Below, one piece after another: positions 2,419 to 5,171 of a stretch of 5,671 nucleotides of DNA. Every line of letters starts with the position of its first letter. The stretch's first letter is position 1. The notes beneath the pieces are model-generated. The model worked only from the letters and a program-made list of their open reading frames with translations, was not told the DNA's origin and ran no database searches. The translations under genes and the position numbers were made by a program. The stretch lies in the IMG/VR virus record IMGVR_UViG_2648501186_000005; one strand, 5' to 3'. The DNA comes from a virus. Its lineage: Duplodnaviria; Heunggongvirae; Uroviricota; Caudoviricetes.

Positions 2419-2551
2419 TGGCGGGCTGAATGCTTAACATATCCAGGGTTCAGAAAACGGTAAACCCTGATAAATATCCATATCTTCAAACGTTAATAAA
2501 ATGTCAGTTACGGGGCCGCTGATGGTCCTTTTTATTTACAGGAGAATAAAT

Positions 2552-2941
2552 ATGTCTGAACCCTTATCCGGTTCCAGCACTGCTGTGGCGCTCGGCGGGG
2601 CGACGGTATTCGGGCTGTTTACCGGGACGGATTTCGGGATTGTGTTTGGCGCGTTTGCCGGGGCGTTGTTTGTGGCCACGATGCCACAGGTGATTTCTGT
2701 CTGGCGTGTGGCGGCGCATTTTCTGGTGTCGTTCATTGTTGGCGTGCTGGGGGCGGATGTCCTTGCGTCCTGGCTGGTCGAAAAATTGAATCTCCACAGC
2801 ACATCTCTCGACGCGCTTTGTGCGGTACTGGTATCGGTGGTGTCGGTGAAGATTCTCTCATTCATCCACCAGCAGGATATCGCATCGCTGGTATCCGGGC
2901 TGTTCTCCCGTCTGCGGGGTGGAGGCGGTAATGTTAAGTAA
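2552..2941 (+). CDS. Putative holin / lysis membrane protein, 129 aa, 3-4 predicted Gly-rich TM helices
   Basis: ATG at 2552 with AGGAG (2540-2544) at 7-nt spacing; the ORF-track start at 2501 lacks an SD. Hydrophobic segments are AVALGGATVFGLFTG, GIVFGAFAGALFVATM, AAHFLVSFIVGVLGADVLASWLV and LCAVLVSVVSVKILSFI, with a polar, charged C-terminal tail. It sits immediately upstream of the endolysin, and its stop overlaps the next gene's start (ATGTTAAGTAA). Confidence 0.65.
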   Translation: MSEPLSGSSTAVALGGATVFGLFTGTDFGIVFGAFAGALFVATMPQVISVWRVAAHFLVSFIVGVLGADVLASWLVEKLNLHSTSLDALCAVLVSVVSVKILSFIHQQDIASLVSGLFSRLRGGGGNVK

Positions 2942-3209
2942 CCTTCCCGGATTACTGAATGTGGTGTTAAGCACGGTTATCGTGCTGACGCTCTTTTTTT
3001 ATCGTCGTGGTGAGTCGAGACATAAACCGCTGATGTCGTGGCTGGCCTGGCTGCTGATGCTGCTTTATGCCTTTGCGCCGCTTTGTTATCTGTGTGGTCG
3101 CTTTCCACCCGGTAACTGGCTGGTCGTCCTGATTAACCTGGTGTTCTGCGTGCTGGTGATACGAGCACGCGGGAACGTATCAAAAATCCTTGTATTACGA
3201 AGGCGCTGA
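2931..3209 (+). CDS. Second lysis-cassette membrane protein, 92 aa, about 3 TM helices with an Arg/Lys-rich C-terminus (holin- or antiholin-like)
   Basis: ATG at 2931 with GGAGG (2921-2925) at 5-nt spacing, overlapping the stop of the upstream gene. TM segments are LLNVVLSTVIVLTLFF, LMSWLAWLLMLLYAFAPLCYLCG and WLVVLINLVFCVLVI, and the C-terminus is RARGNVSKILVLRRR. The TGA at 3207-3209 lies 1 nt before the endolysin ATG (TGATATG), indicating translational coupling. Confidence 0.6.
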   Translation: MLSNLPGLLNVVLSTVIVLTLFFYRRGESRHKPLMSWLAWLLMLLYAFAPLCYLCGRFPPGNWLVVLINLVFCVLVIRARGNVSKILVLRRR

Positions 3210-3210
3210 T

Positions 3211-3756
3211 ATGAAGTCGAAAGATGAAATTTTTGACGAAATTCTGGGAAAAGAGGGCGGTTACGTCAATCACCCGGATGATAAAGGTGGTCCGACTAAA
3301 TGGGGCATCACTGAAAAAGTTGCCCGTGCACACGGTTATCAGGGCGATATGCGTGACCTGACGCGTGGGCAGGCGCTGGAAATACTCGAGGCGGACTACT
3401 GGTACGGACCACGATTCGACCAGGTTGAGGACCTGTCTCCGGATATTGCCGCAGAGTTGTGCGATACGGGCGTGAACATGGGGCCAACTGTGGCGTCCAG
3501 AATGCTTCAGCGCTGGCTGAACGTTTTCAACCTGCGCGGGAAACTCTATCCGGATATGGATGCTGATGGACGCATCGGGCCGCGTACTCTTAATGCATTA
3601 CGGGCATATCTGAAAAATCGCAGCAGGGATGGTGAACTGGTACTGGTGAAAGCCCTGAACTGTACGCAGGGCGAGCGTTATCTGGAGCTGGCAGAGAAAC
3701 GCGAGGCCAATGAGTCGTTTGTCTATGGCTGGATGAAAGAGCGCGTGGTGGTTTAA
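3211..3756 (+). CDS. Endolysin: glycoside hydrolase family 108-type muramidase with a C-terminal peptidoglycan-binding domain (181 aa)
   Basis: ATG at 3211 with GAAGG at 7-nt spacing; the TTG at 3190 in the ORF track is not the start. The N-terminus has ILGKEGGYVNHPDDKGGPTKWGIT; the EGGY motif with the catalytic Glu is what I recall for GH108 lysozymes. The C-terminal half resembles the PG-binding region that accompanies GH108 domains. There is no signal peptide or SAR segment, so it would depend on a holin. Confidence 0.85.
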   Translation: MKSKDEIFDEILGKEGGYVNHPDDKGGPTKWGITEKVARAHGYQGDMRDLTRGQALEILEADYWYGPRFDQVEDLSPDIAAELCDTGVNMGPTVASRMLQRWLNVFNLRGKLYPDMDADGRIGPRTLNALRAYLKNRSRDGELVLVKALNCTQGERYLELAEKREANESFVYGWMKERVVV

Positions 3757-3850
3757 AAACTGACACTGAAGTGCTGAACACCCTCAACTCATGCAGGCTC
3801 TTTTCTGGGGCTACGATGAGCGAAAGTAAGGGGCATAGCATCAGATAGCA

Positions 3851-3890
3851 AAAACCCCGGCTGCGGTAACAGTCCGGGGTTTTCTGTTTC
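3851..3890 (+). terminator. Rho-independent terminator after the endolysin gene (usable in both directions)
   Basis: AAAACCCCGG (3851-3860) / CCGGGGTTTT (3874-3883) around a 13-nt loop, followed by TTTTCTGTTTC; A-tract upstream and T-tract downstream. Confidence 0.75.
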
Positions 3891-3916
3891 TGGCCTTGGG
3901 TAAGGCAAAGGAGAAC

Positions 3917-4099
3917 ATGAGGAAGTATAAACTAATTCTGTTGAGGTTGACTATGAAAAACGGCCTTGAATTGAAAGCGCCTGTAACTGATGACATCAGC
4001 AGAGCGGTGGCTTTTGCCATTAAGTGGGTGGCGGTCGGTATCGCTGTGTCTCCGATGCTGTATGGGATGGCAAAATTGCTCATTGCTGTGAAATCGTAA
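3917..4099 (+). CDS. Small membrane protein, 60 aa, C-terminal TM anchor
   Basis: ATG at 3917 preceded by AAGGAG (3908-3913); an alternative ATG at 3953 has GAGG upstream. The translation is MRKYKLILLRLTMKNGLELKAPVTDDISRAVAFAIKWVAVGIAVSPMLYGMAKLLIAVKS, with a hydrophobic C-terminal stretch. It is the first of three tightly spaced small genes after the terminator. Confidence 0.5.
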   Translation: MRKYKLILLRLTMKNGLELKAPVTDDISRAVAFAIKWVAVGIAVSPMLYGMAKLLIAVKS

Positions 4100-4116
4100 G
4101 TGGGGCAGGGGTAAAT

Positions 4117-4251
4117 ATGTCAGATAGCATTATAAAACTGGCGCGAATTCTCTGTGTGGTTGTTGGCCTTTCATTTTCAGCAATGTTGGTTGCCATTTTC
4201 ATTTCCACCGCCTGGCGAGTATTGAGCTTATCCGGATTGATTGGTGGATAG
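4117..4251 (+). CDS. Tiny single-pass membrane protein, 44 aa
   Basis: ATG at 4117 with AGGGG at 5-nt spacing, 17 nt after the previous stop. The translation is MSDSIIKLARILCVVVGLSFSAMLVAIFISTAWRVLSLSGLIGG, with one central TM helix. Its stop lies 4 nt before the next start. Confidence 0.45.
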   Translation: MSDSIIKLARILCVVVGLSFSAMLVAIFISTAWRVLSLSGLIGG

Positions 4252-4255
4252 TGAG

Positions 4256-4438
4256 ATGAAGCGAAAACACTGGACACACAGAATGCCGCGAACGGCGGCG
4301 AAATGGGCACTGGTAGCGATACTGGTGCCTTTTTTCCTGGTGGGATGCGTCAGCCTGGATAAGGCGCGCCAGCTTTTCGATACAGCTTCTCAGGTCTGTG
4401 AAATTGTCGACGGTGTTCGGCAGTGTATGCAGAACTGA
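4256..4438 (+). CDS. Small predicted lipoprotein, 60 aa precursor with a lipobox (LVGC) and a mature part of about 29 aa containing two further Cys
   Basis: ATG at 4256; an alternative ATG at 4286 would give a more typical signal peptide, MPRTAAKWALVAILVPFFLVGC. The L-V-G-C lipobox is followed by VSLDKARQLFDTASQVCEIVDGVRQCMQN. It is too short and not proline-rich enough for a typical Rz1-type o-spanin. Confidence 0.5.
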   Translation: MKRKHWTHRMPRTAAKWALVAILVPFFLVGCVSLDKARQLFDTASQVCEIVDGVRQCMQN

Positions 4439-4525
4439 TCGCCTGTAAGAGCAGAATATTGTTGAATCTAAATTTACTTTGAACAGTGGCCCGGATGGAA
4501 AGGGCATCTAAATAGGAGCAGAAAA

Positions 4526-4735
4526 ATGTTAACTGTAAAAGTCATGTCTCAAAATGGTGGGGAAGAGATCCATTGCGGGCGTAGCATTGGCTATCATCCT
4601 GAGCAGCGGAGTATTGCCGTATCGGGAAAGGATGGGAAAGTCATTCTGAAAGATGGAGATATTGCTTATGTAATGAACCAAAACGCTCAAATAATATCTG
4701 TTTATCGGCCCAATAATAGTCAGAAAAACATTTGA
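4526..4735 (+). CDS. Hypothetical small protein, 69 aa, soluble, probably beta-rich
   Basis: ATG at 4526 with AGGAG (4514-4518) at 7-nt spacing. The translation is MLTVKVMSQNGGEEIHCGRSIGYHPEQRSIAVSGKDGKVILKDGDIAYVMNQNAQIISVYRPN.... No TM segment. I cannot assign a family from memory. Confidence 0.55.
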   Translation: MLTVKVMSQNGGEEIHCGRSIGYHPEQRSIAVSGKDGKVILKDGDIAYVMNQNAQIISVYRPNNSQKNI

Positions 4736-4777
4736 ATTTCGCAAGGCCAAAGTTCAGTGGTGATCGTTATCAACTAA

Positions 4778-4806
4778 TTGAAATAACAAGCTTATGTTTG
4801 TGTAAT
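4778..4806 (+). promoter_or_regulatory. Candidate sigma70 promoter upstream of the 4859-5074 gene
   Basis: TTGAAA (4778-4783), a 17-nt spacer, then TGTAAT (4801-4806). Good hexamer spacing and match, but sequence-only. Confidence 0.3.
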
Positions 4807-4858
4807 TGGTGATATAGCATGTTAATGCTGAATATCAGCGTCAACATGGAGTTATACA

Positions 4859-5074
4859 ATGGTTTTTAAACACTATTACGTGAACAAAAATGCTCAGAGC
4901 AATGGCGATCATGAGGTGCATGCTGAGGAATGTTCATATCTTCCTGCTGTAGCTAACCGCGATTACCTTGGTTACTATAGTGATTGTTCTTCGGCGGTAA
5001 CAGAGGCAAAGGCCAAAGGATATTCCCGGGTGAATGGTTGCTATTGGTGTGCCAATAAGTGCCACACGTCTTAA
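4859..5074 (+). CDS. Hypothetical small Cys/His-containing protein, 71 aa, possible metal-binding; last gene before cos
   Basis: ATG at 4859 with GGAG (4848-4851) at 7-nt spacing and a terminator about 20 nt downstream. The translation contains HEVHAEEC ... DCSS ... GCYWCANKCH. Its position matches the small ORFs found at the extreme right end of lambda-like genomes, but homology is unverified. Confidence 0.55.
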   Translation: MVFKHYYVNKNAQSNGDHEVHAEECSYLPAVANRDYLGYYSDCSSAVTEAKAKGYSRVNGCYWCANKCHTS

Positions 5075-5091
5075 TCAATTGTCAATAAACC

Positions 5092-5118
5092 ATAAAGGCC
5101 GCTCTGCGGCCTTTTTCA
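5092..5118 (+). terminator. Rho-independent terminator (usable in both directions)
   Basis: GC-rich stem GGCCGC (5097-5102) / GCGGCC (5106-5111) with a short loop, flanked by ATAAA upstream and TTTTT (5112-5116) downstream. Confidence 0.7.
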
Positions 5119-5140
5119 TGTTAAAAAAGATTGCGGCATT

Positions 5141-5171
5141 ACAGCAGCCCTTCACTCTAAGGGGCTGCTGT
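5141..5171. repeat. Perfect 10-bp palindrome (ACAGCAGCCC ... GGGCTGCTGT) with an 11-nt loop
   Basis: Arms at 5141-5150 and 5162-5171. It is not followed by a T-tract on either strand at terminator distance, so it is more likely a structural or binding element than a terminator. Confidence 0.5.

Follow-up and report, generated by a model that had tools for sequence, protein, structure and literature searches.

Lysis genes of the window

The 5,671-nucleotide (nt) stretch of DNA analyzed here, referred to as the window, comes from the tailed-phage record IMGVR_UViG_2648501186_000005 and carries a lysis cassette whose core is formed by three plus-strand genes. The first, hol1 (2552..2941), encodes a 129-residue, Gly-rich membrane protein of the Phage_holin_8 family (PF16931) with three to four hydrophobic helices. 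The second, hol2 (2931..3209), encodes a 92-residue, class-I-holin-like protein of the Phage_holin_3_7 family (PF05449) with three transmembrane domains (TMDs) and a strongly basic C-terminus. The third (3211..3756) encodes a 181-residue soluble endolysin, a glycoside hydrolase family 108 (GH108) N-acetylmuramidase with a C-terminal PG_binding_3 domain. An intrinsic-terminator-like hairpin followed by a U-run, identified by RNA folding (3841..3893, plus strand), lies between the endolysin gene and the small plus-strand genes p67 (also p60a), p44, and p60lip. With a probability of about 85%, the cassette serves a Rac-like lambdoid prophage as its late-gene module for host lysis, a reading that rests on gene structure, family membership, homology to an active muramidase, operon position, and gene linkage, each observed directly.

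The hol1 frame runs from ATG 2552 to TAA 2941 and the hol2 frame from ATG 2931 to TGA 3209 in both the list of open reading frames (ORFs) and the sequence, and the two overlap by 11 nt within ATGTTAAGTAA. The endolysin frame runs from ATG 3211 to TAA 3756 and begins 1 nt past the hol2 stop (TGATATG). A Shine-Dalgarno-like motif precedes each start at suitable spacing: AGGAG for hol1 (2540..2544, plus strand, read from the sequence 7 nt 5′ of the ATG), GGAGG for hol2 (6 nt 5′), and GAAGG for the endolysin. The position of AGGAG favors ATG 2552 over the in-frame upstream ATG 2501 as the hol1 start, and RefSeq places the start at the same ATG 2552. The three genes are translationally coupled. PHROGs places all three proteins in lysis families, and their ratios of nonsynonymous to synonymous polymorphism (pN/pS) against relatives, which pool non-independent pairwise comparisons, are 0.20 for hol1, 0.32 for hol2, and 0.10 for the endolysin, indicating real genes rather than chance ORFs. 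Purifying selection acts on all six genes of the region, including p67, p44, and p60lip.

An earlier note on this DNA, made from the letters alone, had described three coupled genes for two membrane proteins and an endolysin, and every feature of that description is borne out by the ORF list, the sequence, hydropathy, and Pfam. Its statement that the cassette is of a non-lambda type also holds, as none of the three proteins matches the Pfam families of lambda S, R, or Rz. The end of the cassette at 3890 was drawn too early, given the strict linkage of the lipoprotein gene at 4256-4438 to the holin pair.

A second terminator-like hairpin with a T-run is found at 2512-2529, just 5′ of the hol1 Shine-Dalgarno motif and within a spurious extension of the hol1 ORF. 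It would need read-through by a Q-modified polymerase.

The GH108 endolysin

The endolysin matches PF05838 (Glyco_hydro_108; 93.4 bits, 1.2e-26) and PF09374 (PG_binding_3; 93.5 bits, 9e-27), in agreement with the earlier description of a GH108 enzyme with a peptidoglycan-binding C-terminus. Alongside the PG_binding_3 domain, it contains the hallmark of the GH108 muramidases (family of phage N4 gp61, Sen1395, and TtsA), with the catalytic E15 in KEGGY (EGGY motif) and T29, and its diaminopimelic acid (DAP) pocket has D119 and T126. The protein has no hydrophobic segment, signal sequence, or signal-arrest-release (SAR) sequence, and its N-terminus MKSKDEIFDEILGKEGG is charged, as in canonical soluble, holin-dependent endolysins.

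A search of solved structures returns the Salmonella GH108 muramidases Sen1395 (PDB 6V3Z, 3.7e-107) and TtsA (PDB 6V40, 4.9e-86), and the endolysin is identical to Sen1395 at 153/180 positions (85%) and to TtsA at 124/177 (70%). On sequence, its kinship with TtsA is real. Sen1395 and TtsA share with it the two-domain GH108 and PG_binding_3 architecture, the catalytic Glu and Thr, and the Asp and Thr that bind DAP. TtsA differs: it is a stand-alone secretion factor under PhoP control, and its specificity is for LD-cross-linked peptidoglycan.

Purified Sen1395 hydrolyzes ordinary peptidoglycan, and its overexpression stops growth (Geiger et al. 2020, PMC6996933). Sen1395 is unable to replace TtsA in typhoid-toxin translocation and is not targeted to the pole (PMC6996933). 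TtsA owes its specificity to an uncharged groove formed by I116, Q120, Q164, and N166; the corresponding residues of Sen1395 are D, R, E, and D. The N166 position is critical for typhoid-toxin translocation, and Sen1395 gains part of this activity when its Asp there is replaced by Asn (PMC6996933). The groove of the window endolysin consists of D117, R121, E165, and N167, of which the first three are of the Sen1395 type and only N167 is of the TtsA type, so that the uncharged groove of TtsA is absent. At the position of TtsA D19, the endolysin has Asn, as does the active Sen1395. Its score against the NCBIfam equivalog NF040573 (holin-associated N-acetylmuramidase) is 73.1 bits, below the cut-off of 240 bits.

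The N167 codon lies at 3709-3711. The same Asn occurs in the EANxSF motif of the endolysins of the LT-II prophages and phage vB_YpM_39.

The hol1-hol2 holin pair

The earlier note proposed profile assignment and topology prediction of the two membrane proteins as checks, and both agree with holin function, each protein scoring above the gathering score of its Pfam holin family. Hol1 matches PF16931 at 81 bits (E 1e-22; gathering score 26.4 bits) over profile positions 1-121/121 and phrog_198 (holin) at 3.5e-41. It contains 11.6% Gly, and its hydropathy profile shows three strong hydrophobic segments and a weaker, Gly-rich N-terminal one. Hol2 matches PF05449 at 74.2 bits (E 8.4e-21; gathering score 25.4 bits) and phrog_217 (holin) at 3.7e-35. 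It has three hydrophobic segments and a strong excess of basic residues (K+R 11 versus D+E 1), and its C-terminal end is RARGNVSKILVLRRR. AlphaFold2 (AF2) models served for helix counts alone, being single-sequence models of low confidence: Hol1, with a predicted local distance difference test (pLDDT) score of 56, has four helices at 7-24, 27-42, 48-79, and 83-121, and Hol2 (pLDDT 66) has helices at 4-25, 32-54, and 61-91.

Neither gene carries a lambda-style dual start, in which the longer product of two in-frame starts a few codons apart gains a positive charge. In hol2, the sole alternative start, GTG 2919, adds MEAV and thus a negative charge; in hol1, the upstream ATG 2501 lies inside a hairpin and T-run and overlaps the Shine-Dalgarno motif of ATG 2552. 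Any antiholin function is therefore likely to come from one of the two genes.

An overlapping or abutting hol1-hol2 pair is present in phiP27 (L28/L29), phiSTEC1575-Stx2k, and the LT-II prophages Rac-SA53 and SerU-LTIIb (holin1/holin2), and also in mEp390, HK639, SaltyDalty, Yersinia phage vB_YpM_39, and Klebsiella phage Seifer; Pfam confirms the family assignments of the distant members. Both genes are present in 80/80 viral contigs of the mEp390 clade and are detected in 72/80 contigs that carry p60lip, the other 8 having a truncated version of the same order; these contig sets are dominated by close relatives, and the linkage counts do not represent independent events. No natural cassette with hol2 minus hol1, or the reverse, occurs among the loci examined, including those of Seifer, SaltyDalty, and vB_YpM_39. 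The endolysins that accompany the pair belong to three unrelated types of soluble enzyme, GH108, Peptidase_M15_4, and GH19-like, which upholds the modular exchange of lysis genes suggested in the earlier note. Since the pair serves soluble endolysins, any lesions it forms must pass a folded enzyme rather than be pinholes. Across these loci, PF16931-PF05449 behaves as a two-gene holin module that is never split and that can be paired with at least three unrelated endolysins.

In the SerU-LTIIb prophage, a second hol1 copy (holin1a) and a 43-bp fragment of hol2 are flanked by duplicated tRNA genes (2032-2456 of its stretch). This arrangement points to duplication or recombination having occurred locally at the cassette.

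Hol2 is most likely the hole-former, by analogy with class-I holins: it has three TMDs, a predicted N-out/C-in orientation, and a very basic tail. Hol1, with its four helices, Gly-zipper-like motifs, and constant association with hol2, would most likely set the timing, as an antiholin or as an obligate co-holin. Hole formation and the split between holin and antiholin are both proposed from topology and analogy. The converse arrangement is a serious contender of lower probability: Hol1 could be the true hole-former, with Hol2 as an antiholin or pinholin-like depolarizer, or the two could build an obligate hetero-oligomeric holin in which neither works alone. The fact that hol1 and hol2 are never apart in the loci examined is equally compatible with obligate co-function and with a holin/antiholin pair; Gly-zipper-like motifs of the kind seen in Hol1 are typical of holin helix packing, and Pfam and PHROGs call both proteins holins. 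Annotators at the Center for Phage Technology left the assignment open in Seifer, naming both genes "hypothetical holin-antiholin". On the other side, the textbook class-I features of about 90 to 105 residues, three TMDs, and a cytoplasmic tail that is short and highly basic are found in Hol2 alone. Known accessory proteins with four TMDs, such as P2 LysA, are timing regulators, which counts against Hol1 as the hole-former. No member of the PF16931-PF05449 pair has apparently been dissected experimentally, and the pair would offer a clean system in which to study two-gene holin/antiholin timing.

The lipoprotein p60lip, a candidate for the third step of lysis

The p60lip gene (4256..4438, plus strand; alternative start 4283) encodes a predicted outer-membrane lipoprotein and is a candidate third-step lysis factor. 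A six-frame scan with all start codons finds no lipobox in any alternative-frame ORF within hol1, hol2, or the endolysin gene. Extended to the whole window in the search for embedded or overlapping spanins, the six-frame scan returns p60lip as the only lipobox ORF. The remark in the earlier note that the cassette has no embedded spanins is thus literally true, but it does not amount to the lack of a third-step gene.

The protein has signal peptide features and the lipobox LVGC, in which Cys31 is followed by V and S. The absence of Asp at position +2 predicts sorting to the outer membrane. The mature peptide, CVSLDKARQLFDTASQVCEIVDGVRQCMQN, has 30 residues with Cys48 and Cys57 and is predicted to be helical. 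The lipobox and C48 do not vary across 19 diverse homologues, and conservation of C57 is at least 90%. The protein matches phrog_7528 at 3.8e-38, and its pN/pS is 0.20. All 120 homologues among the matches listed are at least 68% identical, and those with organism names come only from Escherichia, Salmonella, Citrobacter, Cronobacter, and Yersinia. No Pfam match appears at E values up to 0.1, which is the sole check on likeness to colicin lysis proteins.

p60lip is 95% identical to phiP27 20679-20858. SpaninDB lists for phiP27 a "separated" two-component spanin, with an inner-membrane subunit (i-spanin) of 64 residues at 20348-20542 and an outer-membrane subunit (o-spanin) of 51 residues, 30 of them mature, at 20706-20861 (Kongari et al. 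2018, PMC6139136). With 62 periplasmic residues, it is cited as the shortest spanin known, and both of its subunits are singleton families (PMC6139136). By sequence, the catalogued phiP27 o-spanin is the p60lip homologue read from its second Met. The ORF proposed as the phiP27 i-spanin begins with TTG, lies antisense to a 90-residue ORF that looks more like a protein, and is not conserved in other p60lip loci; tblastn finds no match to it in the window.

In the GenBank record of phiP27, L32 (51 residues, MHGDFISRL...) is annotated in another frame than the lipoprotein ORF (5515-5670 versus 5558-5746 of the stretch), and the lipoprotein itself is unannotated. The record of phage vB_Apl-pPE4 likewise has no feature at the lipoprotein ORF and has a short minus-strand coding sequence (CDS) just downstream.

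Linkage ties p60lip to the holin pair. It lies downstream of hol1-hol2 and a GH108 or M15 endolysin in 72/80 IMG/VR loci, with a truncated form of the same order in the other 8, and it is never found with S/R/Rz in these 80 viral contigs. The genes between the endolysin and p60lip, and those 3′ of p60lip, vary among the contigs.

Two small membrane-protein genes precede p60lip in the window. The first, p67 (3917..4099, plus strand; alternative starts 3896 and 3953), encodes a small protein with a C-terminal hydrophobic segment (phrog_1115, 1.7e-44; core pN/pS 0.39) and is present in only some p60lip loci. The second, p44 (4117..4251, plus strand), encodes a 44-residue single-TMD protein with about 11-15 residues past the TMD (phrog_4906, 1.6e-19; pN/pS 0.15). 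A canonical i-spanin is a type II (N-in, C-out) membrane protein whose periplasmic, usually coiled-coil part can reach the o-spanin. As canonical i-spanins both fail, since p44 is too short past its TMD and the TMD of p67 is C-terminal. They also fail as dedicated partners of p60lip, being found beside full-length Rz in PhiR12 phages and absent from many p60lip loci. In the S/R/Rz phages PhiR12_x, homologues of both are situated between R and Rz, and in PhiR12_3 the p44 homologue adjoins Rz. The likeness between the window and PhiR12_3 stops exactly where Rz starts in the phage and p60lip in the window, which places p60lip in the position of Rz/Rz1.

The p67 and p44 genes (3917-4251; 3579-3871 of the PhiR12_3 stretch) form a portable two-gene block between the endolysin and the spanin slot. 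This block is common to two unrelated cassettes, hol1/hol2/GH108 and the S/R/Rz cassette of PhiR12_x and PhiR5_2.

p60lip resembles an o-spanin in its small size, its lipobox, the lack of Asp at +2, and its periplasmic Cys. Its mature part has no hydrophobic C-terminal segment of the kind found in unimolecular spanins such as T1 gp11. Judged by sequence, p60lip is a good candidate for the third step of lysis, but it falls outside the definitions of both two-component and unimolecular spanins. It is possible, though on balance doubtful, that p60lip disrupts the outer membrane as a minimal factor with no canonical i-spanin, either alone or with a small neighboring protein (p44 or p67, for example) in a non-standard topology, in a third step distinct from fusion of the Rz/Rz1 type. 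The lineage includes the shortest catalogued "spanin", whose proposed i-spanin is missing here, and it offers a tractable E. coli test case beyond the canonical spanin model.

Source prophage and distribution

The window matches the chromosome of the porcine E. coli strain ETEC1706 at 100% identity. The locus (NZ_CP122904.1) is a Rac-like lambdoid prophage that adjoins tRNA-Ser and hyaA and carries racR/ydaS/ydaT immunity genes, replication genes, RusA, and antiterminator Q. Its genes follow the order Q, DNA methylase (cut by the left end of the window), lysis cassette, small ORFs, cos, and packaging/terminase genes, all in the same orientation. By annotation, the cassette thus occupies the lambdoid late-operon position between Q and cos/terminase in NZ_CP122904.1, as it does in at least one other strain, E21845/O/A, in which the large terminase gene beside the same region is full-length and unflagged. 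The cos region shares 91.6% identity with that of lambda, in line with the near-identity reported in the earlier note. RefSeq names the three proteins "putative holin" (Hol1, WP_001315536.1), "phage holin family protein", and "glycoside hydrolase family 108 protein".

The cassette is less rare than the earlier note had supposed. A megablast search with the three-gene cassette against 5,426 complete E. coli genomes finds the holin region in 386; in 107, the match spans all three genes. Annotations for the cassette already exist.

The ETEC1706 prophage is decayed: frameshifts disrupt its terminase and a replication gene, its portal is truncated, and it has lost most of its morphogenesis genes. 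What is left of the portal is joined to unrelated remnants, and no tail genes remain (18230-20723 of the prophage stretch); the lysis cassette and the small downstream genes are intact.

Known relatives

The closest named relatives of the cassette are those of phiP27 and the LT-II prophages. In the Stx2e phage phiP27 (L28-L29-L30), Hol1 is about 85% and Hol2 79% identical to the window proteins, the 11-nt overlap is the same, the lipoprotein is the 95% identical homologue described above, and the genes follow a DNA methylase and toxin slot and precede cos. Unlike the window, phiP27 has a 125-residue M15 peptidase as its endolysin, lacks p67 and p44, and contains the proposed 64-residue i-spanin ORF that is absent here. 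The LT-II prophages Rac-SA53 and SerU-LTIIb (GenBank records of Jobling 2016) share the holin1-holin2-GH108 triple and a Rac-like backbone, and SerU-LTIIb is 84% identical to the window at the nucleotide level over the three genes. They differ in having the eltII A and B toxin genes directly after the endolysin in place of p67-p44-p60lip (Rac-SA53 4416-5556; SerU-LTIIb 5219-6368), and neither contains the lipoprotein gene or any annotated spanin.

More distant relatives retain the arrangement with other spanins. In mEp390, HK639, and Seifer, the PF16931-PF05449 pair lies directly 5′ of a soluble endolysin, which is a GH108 enzyme in Seifer and 12 contigs of the mEp390 clade. In contrast to the window, mEp390, HK639, Seifer, SaltyDalty, and vB_YpM_39 have ordinary short two-component spanins directly after the endolysin. 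In mEp390, these are a 91-residue i-spanin overlapping a 75-residue o-spanin, and in Seifer a 128-residue membrane protein and an 87-residue o-spanin, whereas in the window the 30-residue mature lipoprotein stands alone.

Lambda S/R/Rz-Rz1 resembles the cassette in operon position and three-step logic, as well as in the adjacent cos. Its protein families are unrelated, however: the window has two holin-family genes instead of one dual-start gene, a GH108 muramidase instead of a transglycosylase, and no embedded spanin gene. By analogy, the cassette would work like the late lysis operon of lambda but is built from unrelated families. A looser analogy is found in the P2 genes Y/K/LysA/LysB/LysC, with a class-I-like three-TMD holin of about 93 residues, a separate four-TMD accessory protein, and non-embedded spanins; in P2, lysA follows the endolysin gene. 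Pfam and PHROGs scans detect no sequence similarity to the P2 lysis proteins.

Every component of the cassette is already annotated or catalogued, and the cassette type is already known. The RefSeq names, the phiP27, LT-II, mEp390/HK639, and Seifer records, and a characterized endolysin homologue that is 85% identical leave the region little weight as annotation. Its residual interest lies in the division of holin and antiholin functions between hol1 and hol2 and in a 30-residue lipoprotein that may breach the outer membrane without a canonical partner.

Proposed function and alternative explanations

As a lysis module, the cassette would act late after prophage induction. Q-antiterminated transcription would pass through the methylase and moron region into hol1, hol2, and the endolysin gene, which would be translated as a coupled unit. 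The muramidase, having no export signal, would accumulate in folded form in the cytoplasm while the membrane proteins build up in the inner membrane. These would then trigger and form lesions large enough to release the muramidase, which would cut the glycan strands of the sacculus. If the polymerase passed the terminator at about 3850-3890, p67, p44, and p60lip would also be expressed, and p60lip would fill the spanin slot and probably contribute to outer-membrane disruption. Judging from lambda biology, read-through of this terminator would be expected for a Q-modified late transcript.

Several observations weigh against this account. The hairpin at 3841-3893 is strong (-27.6 kcal/mol, z = -5.85; 0/200 shuffles equally stable) and parts the endolysin gene from p67, p44, and p60lip. 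The window contains no canonical i-spanin, and there is no TMD ORF other than p67 and p44 between 3756 and 5100. The LT-II prophages have the same holins and endolysin and no p60lip, which implies that p60lip is not indispensable to the cassette. The structural models of Hol1 and Hol2 are of low confidence, and no experimental work on PF05449, PF16931, or two-holin GH108 cassettes was found in the searchable literature. Owing to the decay of the ETEC1706 prophage, the cassette there cannot serve virion release and may never be expressed.

This last point leads to an alternative in which ETEC1706 retains the cassette as an inert relic of prophage decay, intact only as decay has not yet reached it and without current function for phage or host. 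The frameshifted terminase and replication gene, the truncated portal, and the loss of most morphogenesis genes are what such a relic would show. The explanation is unlikely, as the reading frames are intact, including all five RefSeq CDSs, purifying selection acts across the lineage, and in E21845/O/A the same region accompanies the full-length terminase gene. It also bears on present utility and not on what the genes encode.

The earlier note had added that a secretion-type role should be kept in mind, and with 70% identity between the endolysin and TtsA, the caveat is fair. In its fullest form, the cassette would be a type 10 secretion-like holin/muramidase release system, domesticated for non-lytic or subpopulation release of periplasmic or cytoplasmic cargo. 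Such a system would accord with Asn167, the equivalent of the TtsA residue that partly gives translocation when introduced into Sen1395, and with the persistence of an intact cassette in a defective prophage. AB5 toxin genes lie beside the same cassette in sibling prophages (LT-IIa, LT-IIb, Stx2e, and Stx2k), and the holin that serves TtsA is itself still unidentified. The window, however, contains no cargo or toxin gene, and the context is unlike that of a TtsA-type muramidase, which would be expected beside its cargo, outside any phage late operon and apart from holin genes; here two holin genes are adjacent, with Q upstream and cos/terminase downstream in a Q-dependent late operon. The endolysin is nearer to Sen1395, which neither stands in for TtsA nor is targeted to the pole, and lysis is the conventional explanation of toxin release by Stx and LT-II phages. 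Together with the charged, Sen1395-type residues D117, R121, and E165 of the groove and the low NF040573 score, this makes a lytic role much likelier than TtsA-like secretion, and the release-system explanation is highly improbable.

The lysis module is still relevant to toxin release. The cassette adjoins AB5 toxin genes (Stx2e, Stx2k, and LT-II) in its relatives and its endolysin is the closest phage relative of TtsA, which bears on how lysis modules are recruited for toxin release. As a speculation, hol1/hol2 might represent the natural holin partner of TtsA-like muramidases and provide a lead to the TtsA holin.

Neighboring genes

The window contains no tRNA or known RNA family, including those of the tRNA slot of stx phages. 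Upstream of the cassette, a 92-residue ORF at 1446-1765 (phrog_2873, 9e-47) is followed by a terminator-like hairpin at 1748-1765 and resembles a self-contained moron. A DUF1883 ORF (PF08980, 3e-26) lies on the minus strand at 2083-2418, antisense to the late operon. It occupies the "moron/toxin slot" between the methylase gene and hol1, where phiP27 has stx2e. TerB-family and DUF1398 genes are annotated inside the matched stretch of other E. coli prophages.

Between the lipoprotein gene and cos, the window at 4526-5114 contains the conserved small soluble ORFs p69 (phrog_3909) and the Cys-rich p71 (phrog_4298). This block is closed by a bidirectional terminator-like hairpin at 5094-5114, and in phiP27-type loci its place is taken by L33 and L34.

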